From: Deltaproteobacteria bacterium
GTDB taxonomy: Bacteria > Desulfobacterota > Binatia > Bin18
Direction of reading: 5' to 3'
DNA length: 34,094 nucleotides
Assembly (NCBI GenBank): GCA_013140885.1
Contig: JABFSC010000032.1
Span: forward strand, 1-34,094
The notes beneath the pieces were generated by a model, which was not told the DNA's origin, did not search any database, and saw only the letters and a program-made list of their open reading frames with translations. How positions within the stretch are numbered: position 1 is the first letter of the stretch; every line of letters begins with the position of its first letter. A program made the translations under genes and the position numbers. This document shows positions 8,289 through 33,050 of this stretch, piece by piece.

Positions 8289-8295
8289 TGAAGCT

Positions 8296-9654: not shown

Positions 9655-9663
9655 AAAAATAGG

Positions 9664-10263: not shown

Positions 10264-10289
10264 GGGCACTGGGATACTGAGCGCTTGAG

Positions 10290-10329: not shown

Positions 10330-10368
10330 GTTGACCAGACCGCACCGCTCTACTATTGTCGCCGCACT

Positions 10369-12899: not shown

Positions 12900-12925
12900 G
12901 CCGAAGAGTTGATGGGGCTGACATC

Positions 12926-13834
12926 GTGGCGCTGACTGATTTTACCTTCTTTCGCCAACTCGACCGCCTGCGCTTGCGGATACGGACCGCGCGTGGCCAC
13001 CGGCCTGGCGAAACCCTGATCCCTCGCGCGACCCAAGCCTGGGGCGTTGAGTTCGAGTCCTATAAGGATTATGTCCCCGGCGATGACTTCCGCTACGTCG
13101 ATTGGAACGCCGTGGGGCGACTCGATCAACTCGTGGTGCGCACCTTCACCGCCGAGCGCGAGATTCCCGTCCATCTCTTCCTCGACACCAGCGCTTCGAT
13201 GGGGGCACCGGCGATAGATCACAAGTTCACGTTCGCCACGGACCTAGTGTCCGCGCTGGGGTACGTGGTGCTCAACAACAACGACCCCCTGCACCTGGTC
13301 GCGCTGGCCGCCCCCAAGTCCGGGCACCAGCCCTTTCGTCCGGCACCCATGTTGCGCCATCGCAGTCAGTTCTCTCGCCTGCCGGCGTTTTTACAGACCC
13401 TCATCCCTGATGGAAAAACCTACCTCCGTGAGACCGTGCGCGCCTACATTGAACAGACCCACGAGCCCGGGGTCGCCACCCTCGTGTCGGATTTCCTCGT
13501 GGAGCCCGCCCAATACGAAGGCGCGCTGACGTTGTTGCAAGCGCGAGGCTACGAGGTGCGCGCGGTGCACATCGTCGGCGCGGCGGAACTCGCGCCGGAG
13601 CGGCTCTTTCGGCAAGGCAAGCTCTATGATGTCGAGGAGCGGACGGAGCGCTGGGTCTCGCTCAGTCGCGCGCATCTCCAACAGTATCAAGAAGCGATGC
13701 AGGCGCACCTTGATGGCCTCCAACAGTTCTGCCATCGTCACCAGATGCTCTACACGCGGGTGACGACGGACACGCCGCTGACGAAAATCATGACCGAGCA
13801 GTTCACCAAGGCCGGGCTACTCGCCTTTCGATAG
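12926..13834 (+). CDS. DUF58 domain protein (MoxR-associated, VWA-like fold)
   Basis: Signature YKDYVPGDDFRYVDWNAVGRLDQLVVRTFTAERE followed by LFLDTSASM. It sits in the canonical position after moxR. GTG start. Confidence 0.9.
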   Translation: MALTDFTFFRQLDRLRLRIRTARGHRPGETLIPRATQAWGVEFESYKDYVPGDDFRYVDWNAVGRLDQLVVRTFTAEREIPVHLFLDTSASMGAPAIDHKFTFATDLVSALGYVVLNNNDPLHLVALAAPKSGHQPFRPAPMLRHRSQFSRLPAFLQTLIPDGKTYLRETVRAYIEQTHEPGVATLVSDFLVEPAQYEGALTLLQARGYEVRAVHIVGAAELAPERLFRQGKLYDVEERTERWVSLSRAHLQQYQEAMQAHLDGLQQFCHRHQMLYTRVTTDTPLTKIMTEQFTKAGLLAFR

Positions 13835-13846
13835 AAAGTACCAACT

Positions 13847-15733
13847 ATGGGCATTCTCAATCCGGCCGCGCTGCCGTTCCTCACCTTGCTTGGCATTCTC
13901 GTCCTGATTTATTTGCGCGAGCGCTGGCGACAACGGATCGAAGTCCCCTCATTCCTCTTGTGGCGGGCGGTGGCGGAAGATAAGGCGCGCATTCGCCGCT
14001 TTCTCCCCGACCTGCTGTTCTTCGCGCAAGCCCTCCTGTTGCTGCTCCTGATTGGCGGACTCCTGCGCCCCTATCGCTCGGAGACCGTCACCGAGACGCA
14101 TGGCAACCGCCATATCTTGGTGGTGGACACCTCCGCCAGCATGCAGGCACGCGAGGGGCGGACCCGCCGGTTCGATCTCGCGTTGGATGAAGCCAAACAG
14201 GTGGTGCGGTCGCTGGGGCCACTGGATGAATCCATGGTGATTAGCATCAGTACCCGCCCGCAAGTCGTGAGCGGCCTCACCAGCGACCACCTGCTGGTGC
14301 AGCATCTGTTGGAGGCGTTGCAACCCGTGGACACCAGCACCAATCTTGATCTCGGTGTCGAGCTGGCCTTGGCGCAGCGGGGGCGGGATGGTCGCCGGGG
14401 GCAGGTGCATGTGTTCACCGACCTCCCACGGAGCGCGCTCAGTCTCTCGCAAGATCAGGTGCGAGAGTTGGCGTATCACCGAGTCGGCACGAACGATGAC
14501 AACGTTGCCTTGGCCGCGTTCCATCTCTACCAGAACCCGTTTCAGACCTACTCGCAGGCGCAGGCGTATATGCTGGTGCGCAACTACGCCTCGCGGGTCA
14601 AGAAGGGAACCCTGACGTTGCAACTGGACGATCAGCCGGTGTTCAAGAAGGAGTTCACGTTGGCGGCGCGCGAAGCGGCGTCGTTCTCGATGAAAGGGTT
14701 TGAGCACGCGGGGAAACTGGTGGCGAAGATTGAACCGAGTGACGCGCTTGCGCTCGATAATCAGGCGCTGTCGTGGCTGGCGGAACGCTCGTTACGGCGG
14801 CTGGTGGTGGTATCTCCCGTGAAAAGTCTGCACGAGGAACTGACCCGCGTGAGTGAGTCGATCCCCGGCCTCGCGATCACCGTCATGACCCCCGAAAAAT
14901 TCTCACCCGAAAGTCTGAACCCCCAGGATGTGGCTTTGTTCCATCAGTTCGTTCCGAGCGTGACGGTGGCGGTGAACAGTCTCTATGTGTTTCCCCCGCC
15001 GGATAATCCGCTGTTCCCCGTGATCGCGGAAGCCGCCGACCTCAGCATTCTCGACTGGCGCCAAGAGCACGATCTGCTGCGCAACCTGCGGTATGTGGAA
15101 GCGTTGCCGCTGAAGAAGGCGCGGGTGCTGGCGCTGCCGCCGTGGGCGCAGGTGCTGATCTCCTCGCGCACCAAGACCAGTGAGGTGCCGCTGGCGCTGA
15201 CCGGCGAGAAGGATGGCCACCGGGTGGTGTGTCTCGCTTTTGATCTCAACAAAGGGAACCTCACCAATTCCGACAACCTGACGTTATTGCTGTTGTTCCT
15301 CAATACCTTGCGGTGGCTCCTGCCCCCGGACCCAGCGCTGCCGCAACTGGTCTCGACGGGCGAGGCATTTTTCCTTCCCCCCGGCAGTACACCTGATTCC
15401 CTGCGGCTTCGTCCGCCACGGGGCGAGGAGCAGTCGGTTGAAACGGACATGGTGGAGGTCGATCAAATCGGGGAATACCACCTGGATGGCAGCCGCTACC
15501 ACGGCATCCTGTACGCCAACTTGTTCGATGAAGCTGAATCCGACATCGCCCGCCGCGAGGAGCAGGAGTCCGCCCCGGCGCAACCGCGCATCGCGCCCGC
15601 CGCCGCGCCACAAGAGGTGACTCGCGAGGTGCCGCGCGAGTTTGGTCGGTCGCTGTATTACGGGGCCGCGCTCATTCTCACCCTCGAATGGCTCTATGCC
15701 TTATGGCGCTATTCCCGCATGAGGAGCGCATGA
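13847..15733 (+). CDS. BatA-like membrane VWA protein (N-terminal double-TM aerotolerance domain plus VWA)
   Basis: N-terminus MGILNPAALPFLTLLGILVLIYLRERWRQRIEVPSFLLW plus a second TM gives the BatA_N-type double-TM anchor. VWA with MIDAS VVDTSASM. C-terminal TM SLYYGAALILTLEWLYALW. Confidence 0.85.
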   Translation: MGILNPAALPFLTLLGILVLIYLRERWRQRIEVPSFLLWRAVAEDKARIRRFLPDLLFFAQALLLLLLIGGLLRPYRSETVTETHGNRHILVVDTSASMQAREGRTRRFDLALDEAKQVVRSLGPLDESMVISISTRPQVVSGLTSDHLLVQHLLEALQPVDTSTNLDLGVELALAQRGRDGRRGQVHVFTDLPRSALSLSQDQVRELAYHRVGTNDDNVALAAFHLYQNPFQTYSQAQAYMLVRNYASRVKKGTLTLQLDDQPVFKKEFTLAAREAASFSMKGFEHAGKLVAKIEPSDALALDNQALSWLAERSLRRLVVVSPVKSLHEELTRVSESIPGLAITVMTPEKFSPESLNPQDVALFHQFVPSVTVAVNSLYVFPPPDNPLFPVIAEAADLSILDWRQEHDLLRNLRYVEALPLKKARVLALPPWAQVLISSRTKTSEVPLALTGEKDGHRVVCLAFDLNKGNLTNSDNLTLLLLFLNTLRWLLPPDPALPQLVSTGEAFFLPPGSTPDSLRLRPPRGEEQSVETDMVEVDQIGEYHLDGSRYHGILYANLFDEAESDIARREEQESAPAQPRIAPAAAPQEVTREVPREFGRSLYYGAALILTLEWLYALWRYSRMRSA

Positions 15734-18372
15734 CTTACGAATTCCAAGGAGTGACGTACATCCTGCTCGCGCCGGAGTGGTTGTGGCTATTGGCGGTGCT
15801 GCCACCGCTGTGGCTGCCGCTGCTGTGGCAACAACGACGGGCCGCGCTGGTGCTGGCGGCCTTGTTACGTACTGGGGCCGTAGTGCTGCTGGCCGGGGCG
15901 CTGGCGGGATTGAGCTGGCAAACCATTTTGTCCGAGCACAAACTCGCGCTGGTCGCGGCTTTGGATATATCTGACAGTGTCGCCAGCGAGGGACGGGCAT
16001 GGATGCAGGAATATCTCACCCGTCTCACGCAAACGTTGGAGCCCGCCGACGAGTTTTCCGTCTTGACCTTCGCCGCCGATGCGCAGGTGTTGATCCCGCC
16101 TGGCCCACCACCTTCATCTGGGTCAAAGACCGTGGTGCCCGCACCCGTGGAAGGGCAAGGGGGGGAGACCAACATCGCCCGCGCGCTTGAGCGGGCCTTT
16201 GCCCTGTATCCCGAAGGTGGAGAGAAGCGGCTGGTGCTGCTGACCGATGGCAATGAAACCCAGGGGCTGGCCAAGCGTGATATCGCCCTGGCACGCCGGA
16301 TGGGGGTCAAGGTCTTTCCGGTGATTCCGCCGAGTGGCCAACACCCGGAGGTTTCGCTGGAGAAATTCGTCGCCCCCCCGTTGGTGCGGGAAGGGAGTGC
16401 CTTCACCTTGCGGCTGGTGGTCCGCAACGGCAATGACAAGGCGCTGCCGGGCCAACTCACGGTTCTGGCGAATGACCAGTCGTTGACCAAGCAAGAGATC
16501 ACCATCGCGCCGGGGTTATCGGTGTTCGAGGTGCCCGCACAGATTTCGCAACGCGGCACCTATCTGTTACGTGGGCAGATCAAAGCGACCCCGGATACCA
16601 TCGCTGGGAACAATCAACAGAACGCGAGTGTCGCCGTGACCGGCAAGGTCCGCGCCTTGGTCATCACTGATAACCAGAAAACGCACCTGGCCCGCGCCCT
16701 GCAAATGAAAGAAGTGGAAGTGGAGTTCCGCCGACCAGAGGGGCTGCCGTCGCAACTTTCGGAACTGCTGGAATACAACTGCCTGGTGTTCGACGATGTG
16801 GGGCGTGGCGGCATCACGCAGCAACAGATGTCCGCCGTGGAATCCTACGTCCGCGATTTTGGTGGGGGCTTCATCATGGCGGGTGGGATGCGCGCCTTTG
16901 GTGACCTGAACTATAAGAACACCACGATCGAGCGGGTGCTGCCGGTCACCTTCCATGAACAGCGGCCCAAGAAGAAGAAGCGGACGCCGATCGCGTTGTT
17001 CATCATTGTCGATCGCTCCAACAGCATGGGGTACAACAGCAAGGTACGCGGCCTGCATGATGGGCAGAAGATGGTGTATGCGCAAAAATCGGCGATTGAA
17101 CTGCTGACGCAACTCAAGGACACCGACTACGCCGGGGCCATCGCCTTCGATTCCGAGCCGTATGAGCTGTCCCCGCTGCTGCGCCTGTCGCAGAATCGCA
17201 CGGACCTCACCAGTAAGATCGCGCGCCTTCAGTATGGTGGGGGCACGGACTTTTACGGTGCCCTGCAGAGCGCCGCCGACCAATTGAGTCAAGCGCGCGG
17301 GGTGATTCGCCACATCCTGCTCATCACCGATGGGGACTCCAACCGCGCGGCGGCGGACCACTATCCCCTGGTGGCGACCGTGGCGCAGAGGCAGATCACG
17401 CTCACCACCATCCGCATCGGGTCCGATACCGTCAACCTGCAACTGCTCTCCGACATGTCGAAACGGACGGGGGGGCGCTTCTATCACGTCGAGGATGTGG
17501 AGATGCTGCCCCAACTGCTCATCAAGGACACCAAGCAGGTCATGCGCGAGAACGATGACGAGAACGAGGACCCCAAGGAAATCCTGCCGAAAATTGGCGA
17601 GCGCGGGCAGATTCTCAGCGGGCTCAATGAGTTCCCGGCGCTTGATGAGTACATGCTCACCAAACCCAAGGACGGGGCGGAGGTGCAGTTGTACACCGAT
17701 GTCCACAAGGACCACGACCCGCTGCTCGCCACCTGGCAATATGGGCTCGGCAAAGTGGTGGTGGTGGCGTTCGATCCCAGTGGCAGCAGTTCCATTGAAT
17801 GGATTCAATGGGAGGGGTTCAGCAAATTTTGGTCACAAGCGGTGCGCTGGGCGATTCGTGACGAGACGCCGTGGGACTATCGGCTGAGCGCCTACCAGCG
17901 GGGGGATCGGACCATTTTGCAAGCCGAGTCCTATGATACGGATGAGGACAGCCTGTTGCAGATTCGCCTGCCGCGCGGGGCGCAGAACGATGAATTGACG
18001 TTGTTGCCCGTGGCCCCTCGGGTCTATGAAGCGACGATTCCTGGGAAGCGGCAGGGGAGTTTCTCGGTGGTGCTGCTGAAACGCAAGGATGGGAAAGTTA
18101 TTAACCAGAAGAACGAGACGGTGATGGTCAGCCGTCTGCCTGGGGAGGCGCTGGACGAGTATCGACAACAACACGCGAACCGCGATCTGCTGCGCGCGCT
18201 GGCGGACGGCACGGGTGGGCGGATCGACCCGGACATGCAGGAACTGGTGTCGCAAAAACGAGAGGGGCAAAAGAAGCTGCTGCATCCGCTCGACAGTTAT
18301 CTCATCACCATCGCGCTCTTTCTGTTGTTGAGTGACATCGCGGTGCGTGTGTTTTTCGGCCCTCCGACCTAA
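15730..18372 (+). CDS. Large membrane protein with two VWA domains and glutamine-amidotransferase-like (class I GATase fold) regions
   Basis: ATGA overlap with the upstream stop (15730-15733), with GAGGAG at 15721-15726. It has a BatA_N-like double-TM N-terminus, VWA1 with ALDISDSV and LLTDGNETQG, and VWA2 with IIVDRSNSM, YGGGTDF and LLITDGDS. GATase-like stretches are RALVITDN...YNCLVFDDVG...GGGFIMAGG and VVVVAFDPSG...WEGFSKFW. A C-terminal TM is present. The track start 15688 is an extension. Confidence 0.85.
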   Translation: MTYEFQGVTYILLAPEWLWLLAVLPPLWLPLLWQQRRAALVLAALLRTGAVVLLAGALAGLSWQTILSEHKLALVAALDISDSVASEGRAWMQEYLTRLTQTLEPADEFSVLTFAADAQVLIPPGPPPSSGSKTVVPAPVEGQGGETNIARALERAFALYPEGGEKRLVLLTDGNETQGLAKRDIALARRMGVKVFPVIPPSGQHPEVSLEKFVAPPLVREGSAFTLRLVVRNGNDKALPGQLTVLANDQSLTKQEITIAPGLSVFEVPAQISQRGTYLLRGQIKATPDTIAGNNQQNASVAVTGKVRALVITDNQKTHLARALQMKEVEVEFRRPEGLPSQLSELLEYNCLVFDDVGRGGITQQQMSAVESYVRDFGGGFIMAGGMRAFGDLNYKNTTIERVLPVTFHEQRPKKKKRTPIALFIIVDRSNSMGYNSKVRGLHDGQKMVYAQKSAIELLTQLKDTDYAGAIAFDSEPYELSPLLRLSQNRTDLTSKIARLQYGGGTDFYGALQSAADQLSQARGVIRHILLITDGDSNRAAADHYPLVATVAQRQITLTTIRIGSDTVNLQLLSDMSKRTGGRFYHVEDVEMLPQLLIKDTKQVMRENDDENEDPKEILPKIGERGQILSGLNEFPALDEYMLTKPKDGAEVQLYTDVHKDHDPLLATWQYGLGKVVVVAFDPSGSSSIEWIQWEGFSKFWSQAVRWAIRDETPWDYRLSAYQRGDRTILQAESYDTDEDSLLQIRLPRGAQNDELTLLPVAPRVYEATIPGKRQGSFSVVLLKRKDGKVINQKNETVMVSRLPGEALDEYRQQHANRDLLRALADGTGGRIDPDMQELVSQKREGQKKLLHPLDSYLITIALFLLLSDIAVRVFFGPPT

Positions 18373-18453: not shown

Positions 18454-19056
18454 ATGATTGGCTCTTACCCTACCACGGACATTCTTCTTGCCAGTACGCC
18501 TCCCGACGACGATACCCGGGTTCGCTTGCGCGCGTATCGACAACACGCTCTCGCCCGTACCGAGCGTGGGGTTTCTGAACGTGTTATTTTTGTTGAGAAA
18601 TTACGAGAAGCCCTGGAACGCCCCTCGCGGTCCGCGCCCGGCTTTGCTCTGCTTCTTGTCCATATTCATACCGTGCTCCTCCGCAACGAGCCCCACGGGT
18701 TTCCAACTGACAGGTACGTGATTGACGCGGTCGCCGCCAAGCTCCGTCGTGGATTGCGCGCGGCTGATTTGCTCGTCCGCTCCGGAAAACAGGGCTTTGT
18801 CGTGTTTCTCGCGAAAGCCTCCGCGGCTGGCGCGAAGGCAGCGGCGGCCAGACTGACCGCGACCATCCACGACACGGATTTCATCCATGAATCGGTGGCT
18901 TTTCAGGTCAACATGGGTGTGACGGTTGCTCCCGTGCAGGCCGAGGATACCGTGGACACGCTCCTCGATCGAGCAGACCGTTTTCTCCTGGAATGGCGGA
19001 GCGAGGAGGAGCTGCTCCGTGATTATCCATTGCAGTCACAAGTGACCGGGGGATGA
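18454..19056 (+). CDS. Stand-alone degenerate GGDEF domain protein (catalytically inactive; RxxD I-site retained)
   Basis: FALLLVHIHTVLLRNEPHGFPTDRYVIDAVAAKLRRGLRAADLLVRSGKQGFVVFLA aligns residue-for-residue with the GGDEF core as I recall it from PleD (SALLIDIDFFKKINDTFGHDIGDEVLREFALRLASNVRAIDLPCRYGGEEFVVIMP). GGEEF is replaced by GKQGF (SGKQGF at 18781-18798, aligning with YGGEEF) and the metal Asp DID by HIH. RAAD (18757-18768) sits in the I-site position. The C-terminal TVDTLLDRADRFLLE matches the usual ..LL.RAD.ALY.AK. Start chosen at ATG 18454 (GAAGGAAG upstream); the track start 18373 is an extension. Confidence 0.7.
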   Translation: MIGSYPTTDILLASTPPDDDTRVRLRAYRQHALARTERGVSERVIFVEKLREALERPSRSAPGFALLLVHIHTVLLRNEPHGFPTDRYVIDAVAAKLRRGLRAADLLVRSGKQGFVVFLAKASAAGAKAAAARLTATIHDTDFIHESVAFQVNMGVTVAPVQAEDTVDTLLDRADRFLLEWRSEEELLRDYPLQSQVTGG

Positions 19057-19183
19057 CTCATCCCCTGACGGGCAGCGAGCGCTTGCCGTCGGAATGCAAT
19101 AAGGGTAGCAGTTATGACATCTTCTTTGCGCACTGGGACAATCGCTGCTGAATGTGCCACATGGACAGATAAGGAGAACGATA

Positions 19184-19786
19184 ATGAAACGCACCTATAT
19201 TACTACAGCTTTGATCGGCTTATTGGGAATAACCGTGGGGGAGAGCCGAGCCCAAGACGTGCGGGATTTCACCACGCGCCAGCCAAGCAGTCAGGAATTG
19301 GTTGAAACCCTGCGACCACGGACCCGTGGGATCGCGATAGCGCCCGTGGCGATCTCGGGAGCTGGGAGTTGCGAGGCGTACCGGCGCACACGTGGCGTGA
19401 CGCCGGTCGCGGACATCGCGGCCCTCCACGTGACCTTCGCGTTCAATTCGGCCGAGATCAGTCCAGAGTCCGTCCCGCTGTTGAAGAATTTAGGAGAAGC
19501 CCTCAAGAGCGCTGAGTTACGCGCGAGTTGCATGCGGATCGAAGGGCATACGGATAGCAAAGGCAGTGACGCGTACAACTTGTCACTGTCGCAACGACGG
19601 GCACAGAGTGTGATCCGCTATCTCTCGAAATCCCTTAGTGTTGAAGAGGACCGTCTCCTTCCCGCCGGCAAAGGCGAAACCGAGCCGATTGCTGACAACG
19701 ACACGGACGCCGGGCGGCAAAAAAACCGGCGCGTGCAGATTCTGAATATCGGCTATGCCAAAGCGGAGACTCAAGGCAAGAACTAG
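19184..19786 (+). CDS. OmpA/MotB-family peptidoglycan-binding protein with signal peptide
   Basis: FAFNSAEISPESVPLLKNLGEAL...RIEGHTDSKGSDAYNLSLSQRRAQSVIRYL...GKGETEPIADNDTDAGRQKNRRVQI is a canonical OmpA_C domain. Signal peptide MKRTYITTALIGLLGITVGESRAQ. AAGGAG at 19171-19176. Confidence 0.9.
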   Translation: MKRTYITTALIGLLGITVGESRAQDVRDFTTRQPSSQELVETLRPRTRGIAIAPVAISGAGSCEAYRRTRGVTPVADIAALHVTFAFNSAEISPESVPLLKNLGEALKSAELRASCMRIEGHTDSKGSDAYNLSLSQRRAQSVIRYLSKSLSVEEDRLLPAGKGETEPIADNDTDAGRQKNRRVQILNIGYAKAETQGKN

Positions 19787-19819
19787 CCTCCTCGTAAAAA
19801 ACACCCGCAGTTCCTGGAA

Positions 19820-19848
19820 GGGCAGCCCAACGCGGCTGCCCTTTTTTT
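19820..19848 (+). terminator. Rho-independent terminator after the OmpA-like gene
   Basis: Perfect 8-bp GC-rich stem gggcagcc (19820-19827) / ggctgccc (19834-19841), a 6-nt loop, then a run of 7 T (19842-19848). Confidence 0.85.
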
Positions 19849-19938
19849 GTTCCTGCGTTCATTCAGCCCGGAGCAATAAAATCCGCGAGTTTTTCCTCTT
19901 TTCTTTGTAACGTAACGTCACATCAAGGGAGAACAATC

Positions 19939-20397
19939 ATGGAAATGGTATTCAGCAAACAACAGAAAGAAGGAACAACACTGAAAGCTCGCGCTGGCGT
20001 ATGGGTGGTCGCGGTTCTATTCATGGTGGCTGGCTGCGCGCAGCCCATGAACAAACGTGAAAAAGGCTTCCTGATTGGTGGTGGCATGGGAGCGGCGACC
20101 GGAGCCATTATCGGTGCCGCGGTCGGTAACCCTGGAGCAGGCGCGGCAATCGGTGGCGCGATGGGTGCCCTTGGTGGTGGCCTTATTGGGGACCAACTGC
20201 ATGGACAAGAAGTCCAACAGGAGGAACAGCAAAAGGCGATGACCATGCAACAACGGGAACTGCAACAACAACGCCTCGAACTGGAACAAATGAAAAAAGA
20301 ACGCGAAGAGATGAAAAAAGAGCGGCAAGAGCGCGAAATCGAAGACCTGCGCGCCGAGTTAGATGAACTGCGGAGCAGTCGTCGCAGTCGAAGATAG
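19939..20397 (+). CDS. Lipoprotein with glycine-zipper segment and C-terminal coiled coil
   Basis: Lipobox FMVAGC. Glycine zipper GGGMGAATGAIIGAAVGNPGAGAAIGGAMGALGGGLIG. Glu/Gln/Lys/Arg-rich helical tail. AAGGGAGA at 19925-19932 precedes the ATG. Confidence 0.75.
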   Translation: MEMVFSKQQKEGTTLKARAGVWVVAVLFMVAGCAQPMNKREKGFLIGGGMGAATGAIIGAAVGNPGAGAAIGGAMGALGGGLIGDQLHGQEVQQEEQQKAMTMQQRELQQQRLELEQMKKEREEMKKERQEREIEDLRAELDELRSSRRSRR

Positions 20398-20685
20398 CCT
20401 CCCTCTCGGTTCAGACCCTCTCAAACATTTAACTCCTACCCCCCCTCTACCCGCCGGGACGGTCGACAAACCCCCTCGGCGGTTTCAAATCTTTAATCAC
20501 CCGCGATGTCCTCATCTATTGTCTCCTCGTAACAAATGGCAAGGGGACAATCAGCGCAAGCGAGAAAGTTCGAGACGCTTTCCACACCCCAAATGTAATT
20601 GAAGCGTATGCCCTGACTATTGGGTTGCACAGGAAGCCACGGCCCGCTACACAAGAACACCTTCACGATACTAAGGCAGAAGCGA

Positions 20686-22592
<1,907 letters not shown>

Positions 22593-26097: not shown

Positions 26098-26931
26098 ATG
26101 AAGACCGACAGCCTTTTCTACCGCCTGTTTCGGAACCATCCTGGGTTAGCGTTGGACTTGCTGGGCTTGAACTATAGCCCGGACAGTTACCGCTTTGGGG
26201 CCGAAGACATTAAACAAACCTCCTTCCGCCTTGATGGTGTGTTCACGCCATTGAGCAGCGATGCGGAGCAGCCCTATATTTTCGCGGAAATCCAGTACCA
26301 GCCGGACCCGGATTTCTATGATCGCTTGTTTAGTGAGATCGCGCTGTATCTGCGGATCAACAAGCCGACTCACCCCTGGATGGCTTTGGTCATTTATCCG
26401 ACGCGCGGGACGGAACGCCCGGCCAACATCGGTTTTCGCCCGTTTCTGACGTTGCCACAGTTACAGCGGGTGTATCTGGAAGATTTTCCCAACCGCGAGC
26501 ACCCGACGCCCAGGTTGGGTTTGCTGTCCTTGATCGCCAGCGACCCGCGCCAGACGCTCGTCTTGGCGCGCGACTGGCTACGCCAGCATGGCGACACAAG
26601 CACGGACACCTTGGATTTCATTGAGACCATTTTAGTGTACAAATTACCGCGCTTGAGCCGAGAGGAGATCAGACTCATGTTAGGGTTAGAAGACACGCAA
26701 TTGAAACAGACTCGGTTTTATCAGGAAGCGAAGGAAGAAGGCGTGCAGCAAGGCGTGCAGCAAGGCGAGAAACTGATTTTGCAACGCCTGCTCGTGCGCC
26801 GGTTTGGGGAGCTGCCTTCCTCCGTGCAGCAGCGATTGCAGCAGGCGAGCCCCGAACAAGTGGAGCAGTGGGCCGACCGTTTTGTCGAGGCCAGCTCTTT
26901 GGAAGCGATCTTCGCGAATGGCGACAAGTAG
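26098..26931 (+). CDS. Rpn-family / DUF2887-type PD-(D/E)XK nuclease (putative transposase-like) with C-terminal DUF4351-like domain
   Basis: N-terminus MKTDSLFYRLFRNHPGLALDLLGL...FRLDGVFTP...PYIFAEIQYQPDPDFYDRLFSEIALYL...WMALVIYP matches the DUF2887/Rpn pattern, with D...E.Q as the nuclease core. The C-terminus GEKLILQRLLVRRFGELPSSVQQRLQQASPEQVEQWADRFVEASSLEAIF matches the DUF4351 pattern. Confidence 0.8.
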   Translation: MKTDSLFYRLFRNHPGLALDLLGLNYSPDSYRFGAEDIKQTSFRLDGVFTPLSSDAEQPYIFAEIQYQPDPDFYDRLFSEIALYLRINKPTHPWMALVIYPTRGTERPANIGFRPFLTLPQLQRVYLEDFPNREHPTPRLGLLSLIASDPRQTLVLARDWLRQHGDTSTDTLDFIETILVYKLPRLSREEIRLMLGLEDTQLKQTRFYQEAKEEGVQQGVQQGEKLILQRLLVRRFGELPSSVQQRLQQASPEQVEQWADRFVEASSLEAIFANGDK

Positions 26932-26992
26932 CTTCCCGGCTTCGTGCGCGTGCTGCTCAGGCAAAAGGCAAAAATAGAAAGTGGAGACGGAA

Positions 26993-27033
26993 ATCCGCAA
27001 TCTCCGATCCGCAATCTCCAATCCGCAATCGCA
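26993..27033. repeat. Repeat family D: 14-nt tandem repeat x3 (atccgcaatctcc-n)
   Basis: atccgcaatctcc g atccgcaatctcc a atccgcaatcgc, located immediately upstream of the SpeD-like start. The 26981 track ORF reads through it (RNLRSAISNPQS), which I treat as an artefact. Confidence 0.9.
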
Positions 27034-27052
27034 AGGGGTGGGAGAAGAATGG

Positions 27053-27409
27053 GTGATTGAGGCGCTGGGCTGCTCAGCCGCGCGGCTGAGCGATCCGCCG
27101 ACGCTGCACGAGGTCTGCGCTCATATCATCGCCGACCTCAACCTCACCGTGGTCGGAGCCGCGCACTGGCACCAGTTCCCGCCTCCAGGAGGGGTTACCG
27201 GCCTCTTCCTGTTGACGGAATCGCACCTCGCCTGTCATACCTATCCCGAAATGGGAATCGCGACGTTCAATCTCTACTGCTGCCATCCACGCGCGGTCTG
27301 GCCGTGGGAAGAGCGCTTGTCCGCGGCGCTCGGAGCAACGCGGGTCATTGTGCGCGTGATCTCTCGCGGCGCGGACAATACTCTCACGATATGTCAGAAC
27401 AGAAAGTGA
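27053..27409 (+). CDS. S-adenosylmethionine decarboxylase-like pyruvoyl proenzyme (small SpeD-type)
   Basis: LFLLTESHLACHTYPE is the class 1 AdoMetDC self-processing/active-site motif (E-S cleavage, H..PE). Start inferred at GTG 27053, with GGAGA at 27041-27045 7 nt upstream. Alternatives are GTG 27038 and ATG 26981. Confidence 0.8.
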   Translation: MIEALGCSAARLSDPPTLHEVCAHIIADLNLTVVGAAHWHQFPPPGGVTGLFLLTESHLACHTYPEMGIATFNLYCCHPRAVWPWEERLSAALGATRVIVRVISRGADNTLTICQNRK

Positions 27410-27416
27410 ATATCTG

Positions 27417-29342
27417 GTGAGTTCCGTTCAAGTCTCTTGCCCATCCTGCGGGGCGGCGGTCACCTTCACCATCAGCTCCGCGCTGGTCGTGGTCTGCGAA
27501 TTTTGCCGTTCCGTGGTGGGGCGTGGCGACCGTCAGCCCGAAGACTATGGCAAAATCGCGGTCCTGGTTGGCACGGCTTCACCCCTCCGGGTGGGACTCA
27601 CCGGCAGCTACAAAAGCCAGCCGTTCACCCTCACGGGCCGCGCGCAATTCGCTCATCAAGCCGGTGGCGTCTGGGATGAATGGTACGCCGCGTTTCCCAA
27701 TGATCGCTGGGGCTGGCTCGCCGAAGCCCAAGGTCGTTTCTATCTCACCTTTCAACGTGACCTCCTTTCGCGGGAGTCGCTCATACCGGCGGATGACCTC
27801 GTGCTGGGTGAGTGGGTGCCCGACATGCCGTCCTTGTCCCTCTACCGGGTCGCCGAGAAAGGCGTTGCGCAAACCGCGAGCGCCGAAGGGGAGATTCCCT
27901 ACACACTGATTCCCGGAGAAACGCATGTGTACGCGGACCTCTCCGGGCCACACGGCGCCTTCGCCACGCTCGACTACAATCAGGAGCCACCCCTGTTGTT
28001 TCTCGGGCATGAAGTGACGTTGACCGAGTTGGGCTGGGCGCACCTCGGTCAGGGGACCGCGTCCACGCCGAAACAGGCCACCGCTGTTCAGCTCGCATGT
28101 CCACACTGCGGCGGCCCCTTAGCCCTGCGGGCTCCCGACAAGACCGAGCGCGTCACCTGTCCCAACTGCGGCTCACTCCTTGATGTGAATCATGGACAAC
28201 TCAAATATCTGACCACCCTGACCCTCAAGGTTACGCCACTCATTCCGCTTGGTGCGGTCGGTACCTTCAATGGTCAGCAATTCACCACCATTGGGTTTCT
28301 ACGCCGTAGCGTGACGTTTGACGGCCTTCCGTATCACTGGGACGAATATCTGTTGTATCAACCGCTGCTAGGGTTCCGCTGGCTCGTGCACAGCGACCAC
28401 CATTGGAACTTCGTCGAGCCGGTACCGGTCGGCATGGTGGAGAGCGCGGAGCGCACGGCCCAATTTCGTCAACGGACATTCAAGCTCTATCAAGATGCCA
28501 GCGCCCGCGTCGAACATGTGCTGGGCGAATGCTACTGGAAAGTGGAAGTGGGAGAAACGGTTCAGACCGCCGATTATGTCCACCCGCCGCTCATGCTGTC
28601 GAAAGAGCAGAACGAAAGTGAGATCAACTGGTCATTGGGGACATACATGCCTCCAGCCGAGGTCGCGCGTATCTTCGCGCTCACGGACATCCCCCAACCT
28701 CAAAAGGTCGCGCCGAACCAGCCGTACCCGCACTCTCAGCTCTTTGCGTATTGGGGATGGCTCCTGCTCGCGGGGTTGGCGCTGGGGCTCCTGTTGTTCA
28801 TCAGCGCGTCATCACGACGAGTGATGAACCAGATCTATCAACTCGAGCCCGCCAAAATCGCCGAAGACTCGGCCGTCTACTTCAGTGAACCCTTCGCGGT
28901 ACGCGCGCGTGAGAACATCCGCATCACCGCCGACGCGCCCATCGCGAACACTTGGGTGGAAATCGACGGCGACATCATCAATCAGGCCACGGACGAGAGC
29001 GTGGGCTTCACGCTGCCGATTGAGTATTACCACGGGGTTGAGGACGGCGAGCGCTGGTCGGAAGGTGGGCAGCGCGGCAGTACCTATCTCTCCGCGCTCC
29101 CGGCGGGCACCTACGTGCTGGGGCTCGACATCCATCGTGAACATTGGCAGCAACCCCTGACGCTGTCGGTCACGGTCGAACAGGGCGTGCCCCGCTTCCT
29201 ACATTTCGTGGGAACACTTTTCCTGCTCTCCCTGATCCCGCTCCTTATGGCCTTTCATTACGCGAGTTTCAATCAAAAACGCTGGGAAGACAGCGAGTAC
29301 AGCCCTTTCAACAGTGCCGAGTCGGATGACTCGGACGACTAA
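27417..29342 (+). CDS. Membrane protein with two [zinc-ribbon + DUF4178-like] modules and two TM helices
   Basis: Zinc ribbon 1 is CPSCG..x16..CEFC. DUF4178-like module 1 is GSYKSQPFTLTGRAQF...GVWDEWYAAFPNDRWGWLAEAQGRFYL. Zinc ribbon 2 is CPHCG..x17..CPNCG. Module 2 is GTFNGQQFTTIGFLRRSV...YHWDEYLLYQPLLGFRWLVHSDHHW. TM1 is YWGWLLLAGLALGLLLFISA, followed by ~150 aa, then TM2 FLHFVGTLFLLSLIPLLMAF and the acidic tail SAESDDSDD. GTG start lies 7 nt after the SpeD-like stop. The DUF4178 assignment is from memory of the family pattern. Confidence 0.7.
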   Translation: MSSVQVSCPSCGAAVTFTISSALVVVCEFCRSVVGRGDRQPEDYGKIAVLVGTASPLRVGLTGSYKSQPFTLTGRAQFAHQAGGVWDEWYAAFPNDRWGWLAEAQGRFYLTFQRDLLSRESLIPADDLVLGEWVPDMPSLSLYRVAEKGVAQTASAEGEIPYTLIPGETHVYADLSGPHGAFATLDYNQEPPLLFLGHEVTLTELGWAHLGQGTASTPKQATAVQLACPHCGGPLALRAPDKTERVTCPNCGSLLDVNHGQLKYLTTLTLKVTPLIPLGAVGTFNGQQFTTIGFLRRSVTFDGLPYHWDEYLLYQPLLGFRWLVHSDHHWNFVEPVPVGMVESAERTAQFRQRTFKLYQDASARVEHVLGECYWKVEVGETVQTADYVHPPLMLSKEQNESEINWSLGTYMPPAEVARIFALTDIPQPQKVAPNQPYPHSQLFAYWGWLLLAGLALGLLLFISASSRRVMNQIYQLEPAKIAEDSAVYFSEPFAVRARENIRITADAPIANTWVEIDGDIINQATDESVGFTLPIEYYHGVEDGERWSEGGQRGSTYLSALPAGTYVLGLDIHREHWQQPLTLSVTVEQGVPRFLHFVGTLFLLSLIPLLMAFHYASFNQKRWEDSEYSPFNSAESDDSDD

Positions 29343-29361
29343 CCACACATAAGGATACCCT

Positions 29362-29544
29362 GTGTTCAGTCGCTTCTATCTTATCTCTGGCATCACCATG
29401 TTGCTCTATTACGGATGGGTCGCGTGGACCGGCACGGAGTTTGGCAGCCCCGCGCGCGAGAGAATTCCCGCCGACGCCCGACAGTCGCCCGGCGGCTACC
29501 GTTCGTTTCACTCAGGCTATTCCGGCTACCGAGGAGGAAAGTAA
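29362..29544 (+). CDS. Small single-TM protein with Gly/Tyr/Arg-rich tail (hypothetical)
   Basis: GTG start with AAGGA 6 nt upstream. TM is FYLISGITMLLYYGWVAW and the tail is SPGGYRSFHSGYSGYRGGK. The stop TAA overlaps the next ATG (TAATG, 29542-29546). Confidence 0.45.
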   Translation: MFSRFYLISGITMLLYYGWVAWTGTEFGSPARERIPADARQSPGGYRSFHSGYSGYRGGK

Positions 29545-29759
29545 TGGTCACGCATCTGTTCGAACAACTGGCGTCTAGCCTGGTCTTTTCACTACTCGGG
29601 CTCGCCTTCTTCGCCTTGGCCTTCTGGCTCATCGTCAACCTCGCGCCGTTCTCGGTCCGCAAAGAGCTGGAAGAGGACCAGAACGTCGCGCTCAGCATCG
29701 TCATTGCCTCGGTCATCATCGGCATGGCGATCATCATTGCCGCCGCGATTCATGGTTAA
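29544..29759 (+). CDS. DUF350 (YjfL-like) small membrane protein
   Basis: 71 aa with two TM helices ([23 protein letters not shown] and [23 protein letters not shown]) separated by [15 protein letters not shown], matching the DUF350 pattern (..P.d...EI..gN.A.al...G..ia.a.I...). GAGGAGGA at 29531-29538. The track ORF 29415 is an extension. Confidence 0.7.
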
Positions 29760-31290
29760 CCTCACGTCTCCGCCCGCGTCCTCCGCTGGGGTGCGGGCCC
29801 CGCTGTTGTTTCTCAATGTCTTGATTATCGCCACGTGCGGGCTCATCTACGAGTTGCTCGCCGGGACGCTCGCGAGTTACGTGCTGGGGGATAGCGTCAC
29901 CCAATTCTCGCTGATTATCGGCATCTATCTCTTTGCGTTGGGGGCTGGAGCCTGGCTATCGCAATTCATCGAGTCCGGCCTCGCACGGCGGTTCATCGAA
30001 ATCGAGTTGGGCGTCGCGCTGCTGGGGGGCGCGTCGGCCCCGCTGCTGTTCCTGAGTTTCGCGCGCCTCAATTATTTTTCCGTCGTGTTGTATGGCATCG
30101 TGTTCATCATCGGCGTGCTGGTGGGGCTCGAGCTCCCGCTGCTCATGCGCATCCTCAAGGATCAACTCGCCTTCAAGGACTTGGTGTCACGGGTGCTGAC
30201 GTTCGACTATATCGGGTCGTTGGTCGCCGCGCTGTTGTTTCCGCTCTTCTTCGTGCCCCGACTCGGGCTCGTGCGCACCTCGCTTATTTTTGGACTGTTC
30301 AACGCAGGGGTCGGACTCTGGGCGACGTGGTTCTTGCAGCCGATGCTCAAAGGCAGCGTCTTCCTGCTCCGCGTGCGCGCGGTGGTCGTGATGGCCCTCT
30401 TAGTGATGGGCATTCTCAACGCCGACCTGCTCACGTCATTGGCGGAAGACGACCTGTTCACCGATCCGATCGTCTACGCGCGCACGACGTCGTACCAACG
30501 CATCGTCGTCACCAACAACAAGGCGGGGTTCCAACTCTTCCTCAATGGTCACTTACAGTTCAGCTCGACGGATGAGTATCGCTATCACGAGACCTTGGTG
30601 CATCCGGCGATGGTCCTGGCCAACGCGCCACGCCGCGTGTTGATTCTGGGAGGAGGTGATGGCCTCGCGCTGCGTGAGGTGCTGCGCCACCCGTCGGTGG
30701 AACAGGTGACCCTCGTCGATCTTGATCCTGGCATGACGCAATTGGCGCATGCGTTTCCCCCGCTGGCCGCGTTGAATCACCAGAGTTTTTCCGACCCGCG
30801 CGTGCACGTGGTGAACCAAGACGCGATGATCTGGCTCGAAGAGACCAGCGAGGTGTTTGACGTGGCGATGATCGATTTCCCCGACCCACACTCATTCGGG
30901 GTTGGCAAACTCTACACCACTCGGTTTTATCGACTGCTCAAGCAACGGCTGACGCCCGAGGGGGTGTTCAGCGTACAGTGCACCTCGCCATTATTCGCGC
31001 GCACGGCGTACTGGTGCATCGTGCGTACCATTGAGGCGGCGGGGTTCACGGTGAAACCGTATCAGGTGGCGGTGCCATCCTTCGGGGTGTGGGGGTTCGC
31101 GTTGGCGCGGCTCACGCCATTTGACCCACCTCAGCGCGCGCCTGACGGGCTCCGGTTTCTCAACAACCACACGATGGCGACCTTATTTCACTTCCCGGTC
31201 GATATGGGGCCGGTGCCGGTGGAGGTGAACCGCTTGGACAACCAAGTGCTCGTACGCTACTACGAGTCGGAGTGGAAGCGGTACGAATGA
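29752..31290 (+). CDS. Polyamine aminopropyltransferase (spermidine-synthase-like) fused to an N-terminal multi-TM domain
   Basis: The N-terminal ~230 aa contain about 7 hydrophobic helices. The C-terminal catalytic domain has [41 protein letters not shown] and [21 protein letters not shown], i.e. the SpeE dcSAM-binding and catalytic Asp motifs. The ATG at 29752 overlaps the DUF350 gene by 8 nt. Confidence 0.9.
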
Positions 31291-31310
31291 CGGAAAGCGG
31301 AAGATAAAAG

Positions 31311-31395
31311 GAATCGGAGAAACGGAGAATCGGAGACAAGACTTTCCGACTCTTAGACTCCCAGACTCCCGGACGCTTAGACTCCCAGACTGTCC
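31311..31395. repeat. Repeat family E: short direct and inverted simple repeats between the SpeE-like and oxidase genes
   Basis: gaatcggaga aac ggagaatcggaga (31311-31337), then cttagactcccagactcc (31352-31369) and cttagactcccagactgt (31376-31393). The two halves are partly complementary: ggagaatcggagac versus the reverse complement ggagtctgggagtc. Confidence 0.75.
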
Positions 31396-31400
31396 CCAAT

Positions 31401-33050
31401 ATGCCCATCCGTCCTCACTTCACCCGTCGTGAAATACTCACCGCCTTTCTTGGTCTCCCGGCGGCACTCGCCGCATGCCGGAGCCACCCCGCTACGCCCA
31501 CTTTCAGCGGATCAATCGTTGGCATGTCCGACACCATAGGCCATCGCATTCGCGATGGCCTGCGCGTACAACCCACGGCGGACCAGTGGCGGCGAGTCCG
31601 CGTCGTGATTGTTGGCGCGGGGATCGCTGGCCTGACCGCCGCGTGGCAATTGCAAAAAGCGGGGTGTGACGATTTCGTGGTCCTCGAACTTGAACGCGAC
31701 CCCGGTGGCACGGCCCGTAGCGGAGTATCCACGGTGGGCTCCTACCCATGGGGGGCGCATTATCTTCCTGTCCCACATCAAGAAAACACCGAGTTGGTGG
31801 CGTTTCTTGAGGAGATGGGTGTGGTCGAAGGTCGGGCGAGCGACGGAGAACCGGTGGTTGCCGAGCAATACCTGTGTCGCGATCCGCAAGAGCGAGTCTT
31901 TTATCGTGGTCGCTGGTACGAAGGGTTGTATTTGTACGCCGGCGCCAGTACCGACGACCTCGCGCAACTTCATGCTTTTGACGCGGAGGTCAATCGCTGG
32001 GTGGCCTGGCGCGACACCCGTGGGCGTCGCGCTTTTGCTCTCCCCCTCGCGACTTGTTCGGATGATGCCGAGGTCACCGCCCTCGATACCATCACCATGA
32101 GTGAGTGGCTCAACCGCCACGGCTGGCACTCGCCACGCCTACGCTGGTTCATCAATTATGCCTGTCGTGATGACTATGGGCTGACACTTGAACAGACGAG
32201 TGCGTGGGCGGGGCTGTTGTACTTCGCGTCGCGGATTCGCCATCCGGGCGATACCGCTCAGCCGTTTATCACCTGGCCGGAAGGAAACGGACGCTTTGTC
32301 GCGTATCTCCACGACAAGATGCGCGCCCAAGTGCGGTTGGGCTTGGCCGCGGTGGACATCATTCCTGATACGAACGATCCGCCCCAACAGGTTGACGTGA
32401 TCGCGATGGACTCAGCGACACAGACCGCGGTCGGGTTTCATGCCGAGGCGGTCATCTTCGCCGCGCCTCAGTTTTTCGCGCGACACCTGATCCAACCCTA
32501 TCGTGAGCATCCGCCGTCACATCTCGGCGCGTTTGAGTACGGGTCCTGGCTGGTGGCGAATCTCTTTTTACGCGACCGCCCGGCGAACCGTGGTTTTCCT
32601 TTGGCGTGGGATAATGTGATCTATGACAGTCCGTCGTTAGGATATGTCGCGAACACGCACCAACGTGGCCTCGATCACGGACCGACGATCCTGACCTACT
32701 ATTACCCACTGTGTGAAGCGGATAGTCGGACGACGCGGAAAAAACTCCTCGGTATGGATTGGGAGAGTTGCGCGGATGTGGTGCTGACGGACCTCCGGCG
32801 GCCTCATCTCGATATGCGCGCGCTTGTCGAGCGTTTGGACATCATGCGGTGGGGTCATGCGATGATTCAGCCACGTCCCGGTTTTATCTGGAGCGCGGCG
32901 CGACACCGGGCATCGGTGCCGTTTCGCCATATCCATTTCGCGCATACCGATTTGAGCGGCGTCGCGCTGTTCGAGGAAGCCTTCGCGCATGGAGTGCGCG
33001 CGGCCCGTGCGGTGCTGGCGGGGAGACCGGAGCTAGGACACGCGGTATAG
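31401..33050 (+). CDS. FAD-dependent amine-oxidase-like oxidoreductase, predicted Tat-exported lipoprotein
   Basis: Dinucleotide fold VVIVGAGIAGLTAAWQLQKAG...VVLELERDPGGTARS. The N-terminus MPIRPHFTRREILTAFLGLPAALAAC has a twin-arginine motif (T-R-R-E-I-L) and a lipobox (L-A-A-C). The C-terminal FAHTDLSGVALFEEAFAHG is typical of flavin amine oxidase ends. Confidence 0.85.
   Translation: MPIRPHFTRREILTAFLGLPAALAACRSHPATPTFSGSIVGMSDTIGHRIRDGLRVQPTADQWRRVRVVIVGAGIAGLTAAWQLQKAGCDDFVVLELERDPGGTARSGVSTVGSYPWGAHYLPVPHQENTELVAFLEEMGVVEGRASDGEPVVAEQYLCRDPQERVFYRGRWYEGLYLYAGASTDDLAQLHAFDAEVNRWVAWRDTRGRRAFALPLATCSDDAEVTALDTITMSEWLNRHGWHSPRLRWFINYACRDDYGLTLEQTSAWAGLLYFASRIRHPGDTAQPFITWPEGNGRFVAYLHDKMRAQVRLGLAAVDIIPDTNDPPQQVDVIAMDSATQTAVGFHAEAVIFAAPQFFARHLIQPYREHPPSHLGAFEYGSWLVANLFLRDRPANRGFPLAWDNVIYDSPSLGYVANTHQRGLDHGPTILTYYYPLCEADSRTTRKKLLGMDWESCADVVLTDLRRPHLDMRALVERLDIMRWGHAMIQPRPGFIWSAARHRASVPFRHIHFAHTDLSGVALFEEAFAHGVRAARAVLAGRPELGHAV

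Follow-up and report, generated by a model that had tools for sequence, protein, structure and literature searches.

A conserved operon of an AdoMet decarboxylase, a membrane aminopropyltransferase, DUF350, DUF4178 and an amine oxidase that may aminopropylate an acceptor other than putrescine on the outer side of the cytoplasmic membrane

What does a bacterium aminopropylate when its aminopropyltransferase is built into the membrane, and on which side of the membrane does the reaction take place? The question is raised by a cluster of six genes on contig JABFSC010000032.1 (GenBank assembly GCA_013140885.1), which belongs to a Deltaproteobacteria bacterium of the GTDB lineage Desulfobacterota, Binatia, Bin18. 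The whole stretch of 34,094 nucleotides (nt) that was analysed is called the window. An earlier note on this DNA had described the cluster as an envelope-directed polyamine-type module outside primary spermidine synthesis. Our answer has a probability of about one half. The locus would be an operon of an S-adenosylmethionine (AdoMet) decarboxylase (AdoMetDC), a membrane aminopropyltransferase, DUF350, DUF4178 and an amine oxidase, and it would attach aminopropyl groups, on the outer side of the cytoplasmic membrane, to an acceptor that is not putrescine. The product would be acted on by the oxidase in the periplasm, and three of the six products would be non-catalytic subunits.

The cluster occupies positions 27038-33050 of the + strand and consists of six co-directional open reading frames (ORFs), which are called g1 to g6 in this text:

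27038-27409, + strand: g1, a class 1b pyruvoyl S-adenosylmethionine decarboxylase-like proenzyme (Pfam, structure alignment, family N-terminus)
27417-29342, + strand: g2, 641 amino acids (aa), two zinc ribbon/DUF4178 modules and two transmembrane (TM) helices (Pfam, AlphaFold2)
29362-29544, + strand: g3 (sm60), a 60-aa protein with a single TM helix (orthologues in related loci)
29544-29759, + strand: g4, a 71-aa DUF350/YjfL-family protein with two TM helices (Pfam DUF350)
29752-31290, + strand: g5, the 512-aa membrane aminopropyltransferase (NF002956 PRK03612, AlphaFold2)
31401-33050, + strand: g6, a 549-aa protein of the flavin amine-oxidase superfamily (Pfam Amino_oxidase, NAD_binding_8)

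The junctions were read directly from the sequence. Seven nt separate the stop of g1 (27409) from the GTG start of g2 (27417), and 19 nt separate the stop of g2 (29342) from the GTG start of g3 (29362). The stop of g3 and the start of g4 share TAATG (29542-29546), and g4 overlaps g5 in ATGGTTAA (29752-29759). Between g5 and g6 lies a 110-nt spacer (31291-31400) that contains short tandem repeats with 8-nt and 24-nt units. The tight packing of six co-directional genes, with each of these gaps and overlaps, is as the earlier note had given it. The start of g1 had been placed at 27053, and this has to be moved. The options are GTG 27038 (MGEEWVIEALGC...), 27053 and 26981, which gives the longest ORF. 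Since the orthologues share the N-terminus M..G.EW..A.GC, g1 most probably begins at GTG 27038.

The six genes are one operon, and their arrangement is far beyond chance because the same gene order recurs across phyla. A search with g5 against 1.84 billion cluster representatives gave 19,444 matches at E<=0.001, of which 1483 reached E<=1e-30. Among the best 150, most were full-length proteins with the seven TM helices and the spermidine synthase (SpdSyn) domain. An alignment of 31 diverse members of the g5 family was then scanned against one genome per species, and at least 591 genomes were matched. Neighbouring genes were counted at the best 80 loci, anchored on the membrane SpeE, which is the counterpart of g5. 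Only loci with enough flanking sequence entered each count, and the same order and strand were required. The ORFs of these loci were annotated with profiles built iteratively from the window proteins. As the best 80 loci are those closest to g5, the following fractions describe the g5 subfamily and not the whole family:

DUF350 beside the membrane SpeE: 70 of 77 loci
DUF4178 beside the membrane SpeE: 55 of 62 loci
60-aa protein beside the membrane SpeE: 55 of 77 loci
SpeD beside the membrane SpeE: 42 of 59 loci
Oxidase beside the membrane SpeE: 49 of 63 loci
377-aa protein beside the membrane SpeE: 22 of 56 loci
All six window genes together: 32 of 52 loci

The 80 loci span many classes of Acidobacteriota, Myxococcota, Planctomycetota, Gemmatimonadales, Burkholderiales and Comamonas, Competibacteraceae, Obscuribacteraceae and Leptospira. 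The adjacency seen by the earlier note is thus not confined to the window. In two Blastocatellia contigs (L001 and L002), the order is SpeD, DUF4178, a 58-aa protein, DUF350, (a 227-aa protein), membrane SpeE, (a DUF4177-like lipoprotein), oxidase, a 377-aa multi-TM protein and two M16 peptidases. Of these genes, only the six of the window have counterparts there. The five Pfam families to which the products had been assigned, AdoMet_dc, DUF4178, DUF350, Spermine_synth and Amino_oxidase, were checked with their profiles, and all score above the curated cut-offs.

The membrane aminopropyltransferase, g5, belongs over its full length to NCBIfam NF002956 (PRK03612, long membrane-anchored polyamine aminopropyltransferase). 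It scores 661 bits against a cut-off of 472, and its residues 15-511 align to positions 18-521 of the 522 positions of the model. The score for Pfam Spermine_synth (PF01564) is 131.5 bits, with a cut-off of 22.9. The AlphaFold2 model has a predicted local distance difference test (pLDDT) value of 95.5 and a predicted template modelling (pTM) score of 0.90. It consists of seven TM helices, a linker helix and a SpdSyn fold:

29797-30417, + strand: seven TM helices of g5 (AlphaFold2), with the linker helix next
30469-31287, + strand: SpdSyn-fold domain of g5
30649-30663, + strand: GGGDG of g5, residues 300-304
30715-30729, + strand: VDLDP of g5
30871-30888, + strand: IDFPDP of g5, residues 374-379

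These three motifs had been reported as intact behind about seven TM helices. All were located, and the model gives exactly seven helices. In the alignment to 1uir, the aminopropyltransferase active site is complete, with the Asp of GGGDG, the ribose-binding acidic residue and both Asp residues of DxxD. Among 92 homologues of g5, Q249, E280, D325 and D357 never vary, and D303, D375 and D378 almost never do. The acidic residue in GxG(D/E)G marks the use of decarboxylated AdoMet, a criterion quoted in the paper on fungal NHMT (PMC10349129). The catalytic domain is nearest to 1uir and 3anx, the triamine/agmatine aminopropyltransferase of Thermus thermophilus (E=1e-39), and to the thermospermine synthase 6bq2. 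A Foldseek search with the g5 model returned soluble aminopropyltransferases only, and the seven-TM domain was covered by no solved structure.

The side of the membrane on which g5 works was predicted from the seven modelled helices together with the 92-member alignment. The N-terminus and the loops 2-3, 4-5 and 6-7 carry a mean of 10.1 Lys+Arg residues, and the loops 1-2, 3-4 and 5-6 carry 0.52. All 92 sequences show this bias. The positive-inside rule would place the N-terminus in the cytoplasm, and after seven helices the catalytic domain is therefore predicted to be on the periplasmic side. A Pfam scan of ten longer g5 homologues for fused domains that fix the topology yielded nothing informative. 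Within the TM bundle, the conserved polar residues E127, D152, N184, E34, Y43 and D47 are spread across the membrane and could line a path for a cation.

The donor for such a reaction would come from g1. The assignment of g1 as a SpeD-like pyruvoyl AdoMetDC is borne out by the AdoMet_dc profile (PF02675; 83.5 bits, cut-off 25) and by the retained cleavage and catalytic residues:

27215-27250, + strand: TESHLACHTYPE of g1, with the self-cleavage Ser (pyruvoyl precursor), the catalytic His and the Pro of bona fide AdoMetDC (alignment; kept in about 40 orthologues)

In the alignment to 2iii and 1tlu, the class 1b AdoMetDCs of Thermotoga maritima and Aquifex aeolicus, the Glu-Ser cleavage site, the catalytic His, Pro-Glu and Cys are retained. 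Class 1b AdoMetDCs are recognized by S63, H68, C83 and a conserved Pro (PMC10407285). The motif ESH..HTYPE and the Cys of g1 align with these residues in both structures, so g1 has the residue set of this class. The Pro is fully conserved in bona fide AdoMetDC and is lost in neofunctionalised arginine decarboxylases (PMC10407285). The g1 family is a divergent AdoMetDC subfamily with the conserved motif ESHLACHT.PE...N..CC.

The last gene, g6, encodes a flavin amine-oxidase-like protein, as had been suggested. It matches Pfam Amino_oxidase (PF01593) over residues 75-539 with 39.4 bits (cut-off 19.8) and NAD_binding_8 with 49.6 bits (cut-off 21.9). Amino_oxidase is matched by 28 of 29 g6 orthologues, with a best E-value of 1.9e-27. 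A profile of these 29 members, run against the PDB, finds monoamine oxidase, L-amino-acid oxidases, putrescine oxidase, polyamine oxidases and the spermidine dehydrogenase SpdH of Pseudomonas aeruginosa. Two features of g6 bear on its location and its cofactor:

31422-31478, + strand: twin-arginine motif and lipobox of g6, TRREIL...LAAC (FTRREIL...LAAC), at the level of a motif
31611-31634, + strand: GxGxxG motif of g6 for flavin adenine dinucleotide (FAD)

All 29 orthologues, which come from several phyla, have R9 and R10, and in 49 of 57 g6 orthologues across phyla an RR-hydrophobic motif lies ahead of the FAD site. The lipobox Cys is found in Blastocatellia and in some other g6 orthologues, and many orthologues have no Cys. 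The assignment of a twin-arginine translocation (Tat) signal with a lipobox is made from this motif, and the lipobox is not universal in the family.

The remaining three genes encode membrane proteins. For g2, the two zinc-ribbon and DUF4178 modules and the two TM helices that had been proposed are all recovered. Pfam DUF4178 (PF13785) is matched in two stretches with 97.4 bits (cut-off 25), and the zinc-ribbon families match weakly. Both Cys4 sites are conserved in 60 homologues. In the AlphaFold2 model (pLDDT 77), both DUF4178 modules are beta-rich and have a Cys4 zinc ribbon in front. A TM helix comes next, then a beta-sandwich and finally the other TM helix:

27438-27506, + strand: zinc ribbon 1 of g2, Cys4 (C8/C11/C27/C30)
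27579-28016, + strand: DUF4178 no. 1 of g2
28098-28169, + strand: zinc ribbon 2 of g2, Cys4 (C228/C231/C248/C251)
28248-28655, + strand: DUF4178 no. 2 of g2
28737-28805, + strand: TM1 of g2
28815-29183, + strand: beta-sandwich of g2, 120 residues, on the predicted periplasmic side (AlphaFold2)
29196-29294, + strand: TM2 of g2, then an acidic tail

A Foldseek comparison of the g2 model with the PDB gave generic beta-sandwich or jelly-roll folds only, for example Cry-toxin domains and the GOLD domain of p24 (target-normalised TM-score 0.62), and no enzyme fold. Judged by its model, g2 seems to be no enzyme but a sensor or scaffold whose domains lie on either side of the membrane. More than 120 full-length homologues have 50-57% identity, and those with a named source are from Blastocatellia or Acidobacteriota. 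By these homologues the window would most likely come from an uncultured member of Blastocatellia. An exact copy of the g2 protein was found in two short Logan contigs only, neither of which extends the context of the window. In Bryobacterales, Terriglobales, Gemmatimonadales and others, the counterpart of g2 is split into two adjacent genes upstream of the SpeE anchor, one of about 210 aa (zinc ribbon and DUF4178) and one of about 450 aa (zinc ribbon, DUF4178, TM, beta-sandwich and TM). The split is seen at loci L049, L053, L055, L058-L060, L062, L064, L065, L068-L070, L072-L075, L077 and L081. The one-gene and two-gene forms of the DUF4178 protein are the result of a fusion or fission event. 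A literature search turned up no paper that characterises DUF4178.

The 60-aa ORF g3, called a single-TM protein in the earlier note, is a genuine gene. It shares 65% identity with the 58-aa gene of the L001 cluster, and its orthologues account for the 60-aa proteins counted above. It matches no family in Pfam or NCBIfam. Two features define it:

29374-29436, + strand: TM helix of g3
29533-29541, + strand: conserved C-terminal GGK of g3

The last residue is Lys in 59 of 59 aligned orthologues from several phyla, almost always within GGK, and the rest of the tail is variable. The tail has an average of 5.2 Lys+Arg residues, and by the positive-inside rule it would be cytoplasmic. The invariant terminal Lys could be a docking motif or a tethered amine acceptor.

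The product of g4 belongs to the DUF350/YjfL family (PF03994; 47.9 bits, cut-off 26), as had been suggested, and the description has to be amended in size. Only profile positions 2-66 of 133 are matched, and g4 is a single 2-TM unit, the half-size form of DUF350. Its conserved charged loop has an average of 2.6 Lys+Arg residues versus 0.4 and 0 at the termini. Because the loop is rich in these residues and the termini are not, the loop is predicted to be cytoplasmic.

Taken together, these proteins suggest the following mechanism. g1 would make decarboxylated AdoMet in the cytoplasm. The seven-TM domain of g5, with its N-terminus inside as the charge bias indicates, would hold the catalytic domain at the periplasmic face, and its polar track may carry the cationic donor, or else the acceptor, through the membrane. 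On the outer side of the membrane, an amine that is not putrescine would receive the aminopropyl group. g6, as a Tat-exported lipoprotein, would oxidise the aminopropylated product, or its excess, in the periplasm. The DUF4178 protein, with cytoplasmic zinc-ribbon/beta-sandwich modules and a periplasmic beta-sandwich, would serve together with the 60-aa protein and DUF350 as non-catalytic membrane subunits, a scaffold or a gate. The twin-arginine motif of g6, the predicted periplasmic beta-sandwich of g2, the loop charge of g4, the polar track of g5 and the precedent of fungal NHMT all fit extracytoplasmic chemistry.

Several points weigh against this mechanism. The main objection is the donor, since we know of no bacterial precedent for decarboxylated AdoMet that reaches a periplasmic active site. 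The orientation of g5 hangs on the positive-inside rule and on the predicted number of helices. The side of the g3 tail is ambiguous, as its N-terminus also resembles a signal anchor. The Tat-signal profile hidden Markov models (HMMs) TIGR01409 and PF10518 give the N-termini of g6 no significant score, and the Tat assignment therefore stays at the level of a motif. g1 reaches 67.7 bits with the AdoMetDC equivalog TIGR03330, which is under the trusted cut-off of 75.65. g5 retains both acceptor-binding Asp residues of canonical polyamine synthases, which keeps a free diamine or polyamine acceptor in consideration. With NF037959, 'fused MFS/spermidine synthase', g5 scores 36.6 bits over residues 29-429, under the cut-off of 40, so it is a relative and not a member. 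For this reason it is uncertain whether the proteins assayed by Li et al. 2019 are of the exact subfamily of g5. The locus itself is known from its sequence and from predicted models.

Other explanations can be built from the same genes. With its canonical active site and both Asp residues of DxxD, g5 might make spermidine, thermospermine, N1-aminopropylagmatine or norspermidine from a free di- or polyamine. The membrane domain would then export the product as it is made, and the oxidase would provide back-conversion or homeostasis in the periplasm. The broad-specificity triamine/agmatine enzyme of T. thermophilus and thermospermine synthase, as the nearest solved relatives of g5, agree with such a role, and so do the matches of the g6 profile to putrescine oxidase, polyamine oxidases and spermidine dehydrogenase. 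However, three conserved non-enzymatic membrane partners are left unexplained, and the passage on bacterial membrane-aminopropyltransferase fusions in PMC12803844 places them, by experiment, outside spermidine and spermine synthesis. We consider synthesis coupled to export unlikely. Somewhat less likely again is a g5 whose catalytic domain lies on the cytoplasmic side and aminopropylates the head group of a membrane lipid such as phosphatidylethanolamine or an ornithine lipid, with the lipid flipped and then oxidised or trimmed outside by g6. Decarboxylated AdoMet made by g1 would be present on the cytoplasmic side, the active site of g5 comes directly after the last TM helix and is near the membrane surface, and conserved polar residues lie within the TM bundle. 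However, seven TM helices with a cytoplasmic C-terminal domain would put 10 Lys+Arg residues outside and 0.5 inside in 92 of 92 homologues, and no lipid-handling gene is conserved in the cluster at the related loci.

There is a slim chance that g1 is a neofunctionalised pyruvoyl ornithine or arginine decarboxylase and supplies the amine acceptor instead of the aminopropyl donor. Such neofunctionalisation is widespread (PMC10407285), and g1 is under the equivalog cut-off. However, it keeps the Pro that arginine decarboxylases have lost, and g5 keeps the Asp that is specific for decarboxylated AdoMet and hence needs a source of the donor. AdoMetDCs of genomes with such a membrane fusion are also reportedly active. 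A fortuitous adjacency of unrelated neighbours without a common function has the 110-nt spacer before g6 as its sole point. It has virtually no chance of being right and is already refuted by the shared order in several phyla, with all six genes in 32 of 52 loci, and by the overlapping stop and start codons.

Aminopropylation of a non-putrescine acceptor at the outer face of the membrane can also be given a more specific form, which is speculative and which we rate as improbable, below the lipid version. The seven-TM domain would pass decarboxylated AdoMet from a cytoplasmic AdoMetDC/DUF4178 platform to the periplasm-facing transferase. The transferase would build an aminopropyl or oligo-aminopropyl chain on a tethered acceptor instead of a free polyamine, for which the C-terminal Lys of sm60 or another envelope molecule is a candidate. 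The Tat-exported oxidase would trim the chain or yield a reactive aldehyde. If true, this would be the first protein- or envelope-linked aminopropylation in bacteria and the first periplasmic reaction dependent on decarboxylated AdoMet.

The acceptor matters beyond this locus. The membrane aminopropyltransferase family is large and common in major soil phyla, and its substrate has been a puzzle since the association was first noticed. The identity of the acceptor would explain why AdoMetDC is retained in many bacteria that do not make spermidine, and it could reveal a new kind of envelope or protein modification. The window itself adds no unique handle on this question. Such handles are found at the level of the family, in the predicted periplasmic orientation, the putatively exported oxidase, the invariant C-terminal Lys and the split or fused DUF4178.

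The noncoding parts of the operon contain repeats:

26992-27030, + strand: 14-nt tandem repeat (AATCCGCAATCTCC x2.8), probably in the 5' leader of the operon (Tandem Repeats Finder and pattern search)
31311-31336 and 31339-31395, + strand: repeats of the g5/g6 spacer, with 8-nt and 24-nt tandem units

The 14-nt repeat falls in the leader because the most probable start of g1, 27038, is downstream of it. Short tandem repeats with units of 7, 8 or 14 nt are present in several intergenic spacers of the window (3543-3569, 8204-8234, 9663-9692, 26992-27030 and 31311-31395), the last two of which are the spacers of the operon. The repeat units of the operon have no dispersed copies elsewhere in the window, and they match no RNA family and show no significant fold. 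An Rfam scan of the whole window matched no family, and therefore no riboswitch was found upstream of g1. The RNA fold of the 110-nt spacer was no better than that of shuffled sequences (z-score 0.23), with no significant structure. Promoter and terminator scans gave results at the level of chance.

The genes on either side do not belong to the cluster. The upstream DUF2887/DUF4351 gene (26098-26931) and the downstream BKACE gene on the opposite strand were considered as members and rejected; neither is conserved beside the cluster in relatives. Some relatives carry additional genes. The multi-TM protein of about 377 aa that follows the oxidase (L001:17282-18415 and 17 orthologues) is not in the window. 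It matches no Pfam or NCBIfam family and has four invariant His residues, H74, H129, H259 and H345, through which it may bind haem or a metal as a partner of the oxidase in the membrane. Further Blastocatellia genes without a counterpart in the window (L001:12412-13095, 14843-15511, 18510-21369) encode a zinc-ribbon/TM protein with HEAYH (HExxH-like), a DUF4177-repeat protein with a signal peptide and two M16 peptidases. Comparison of the 377-aa, 227-aa and DUF4177-like accessory proteins with NCBIfam and Pfam gave nothing useful.

The remainder of the 34-kb window contains MoxR/VWA systems, a helicase, sugar dehydratases, TypA, DUF2887 and BKACE. A MoxR-VWA-beta-propeller ternary system (783-6825) is made up of a VWA protein (783-2531, - strand), a bpMoxR AAA+ protein (3647-4927, - strand) and a 634-aa protein (4921-6825, + strand). 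The coding sequence of the 634-aa protein includes about 11 tandem repeats of 144 nt (48 aa) at 5184-6774. A BatA-type 'aerotolerance' cluster (11850-18372) comprises MoxR AAA_3 (11850-12899), DUF58 (12926-13834), BatA/VWA (13847-15733) and an 894-aa VWA/GATase1-like protein (15688-18372). Next come genes for GGDEF, OmpA-family and glycine-zipper proteins. In two places ORFs overlap on opposite strands. At 8230-9639 (-) and 8296-9654 (+), the + ORF encodes an XPB/ERCC3-type helicase, and the - ORF is therefore probably spurious. At 9889-11013 (-, 374 aa) and 10369-11853 (+, 494 aa), neither ORF matches Pfam.

How does the operon compare with known systems? The association of these genes and their non-canonical nature have already been published, and their function has not. 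The novelty implied by the earlier note was therefore overstated: AdoMetDC, membrane SpdSyn, DUF350, DUF4178 and polyamine oxidase already occur together in published work that includes partial biochemistry. AdoMetDCs from genomes with a fusion of a membrane protein and a SpdSyn-like domain are reportedly active, and spermidine is said to be absent from the organisms that carry the fusion. The fusion reportedly fails to complement an E. coli speE deletion, and DUF350 is said to cluster with these genes.

The study of Li, Kurihara, Kim, Liang and Michael (2019, Biochem J 476:2579) is cited in PMC11237479 and PMC12803844. It reportedly links AdoMetDC, the membrane-protein/SpdSyn-like fusion and DUF350, as in the window. 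The AdoMetDC is proposed to serve a role independent of polyamines, and the fusion is proposed to aminopropylate a substrate other than putrescine. The citing passage of PMC12803844 refers to the same study for the statement that bacterial membrane-aminopropyltransferase fusions are experimentally uninvolved in spermidine and spermine synthesis. By the account of the citing papers, DUF4178, the 60-aa protein and the putatively exported oxidase of the window lie outside its description.

Ravi et al. (2024, mSystems, PMC11237479) described operons with a 7TM-SpdSyn protein, YjfL/DUF350, DUF4178 and a lipoprotein, and related operons with AdoMetDC and polyamine oxidase. They proposed polyamine monitoring or 'aminopropylation of other substrates', linked to cell-surface lipoproteins, and cited Li et al. 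2019. The window is similar in the seven-TM protein with a SpdSyn-like domain, DUF350 and DUF4178, in the AdoMetDC and polyamine oxidase of the variants, and in the proposed envelope or membrane role. However, PspA, CesT/Tir, the Ctha_1186 lipoprotein and the ATP-grasp ligase of those operons are neither in nor beside the window cluster. No PspA or CesT/Tir-like chaperone gene was found flanking the cluster, so it is not placed among the PspA-linked operons. DUF350 has two TM helices in the window, whereas it has four or eight in the operons of Ravi et al. 2024. DUF4178 differs as well: the window has two copies of it in one protein, together with zinc ribbons, a pair of TM helices and a predicted periplasmic domain. 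The claim that the cluster is envelope-directed and does not serve primary spermidine synthesis fits Ravi et al. 2024, the passage in PMC12803844, the twin-arginine motif of g6 and the predicted periplasmic orientation of g5. For the acceptor, the product and the roles of DUF4178 and DUF350, the claim is a proposal.

The solved enzymes 1uir, 3anx and 6bq2 are similar to g5 in their chemistry. They have about 31-34% identity over the catalytic domain and target-normalised TM-scores of 0.74-0.79, and all catalytic residues are aligned. Unlike g5, they are cytoplasmic enzymes without a membrane domain, and their products are free polyamines. A literature search on Rv2597-Rv2601 of Mycobacterium tuberculosis found nothing relevant. 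The enzymes of PA4773-PA4775 in P. aeruginosa are soluble, and no link of these genes to DUF4178, DUF350 or an exported flavin oxidase is known. They resemble the window cluster, according to references cited in PMC11107197, as a pmrAB-linked accessory speD/speE pair that serves the cell surface and not housekeeping. A parallel in domain architecture is fungal NHMT, in which seven TM helices are likewise followed by a SpdSyn-fold domain (PMC10349129). NHMT acts on secreted proteins in the endoplasmic reticulum, its substrates are not polyamines, and its TM domain is needed for activity. It has Ile in GxG(D/E)G and uses AdoMet as a methyl donor, whereas g5 keeps GGGDG and has an AdoMetDC in its own operon. 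The likeness between the two is one of domain architecture.

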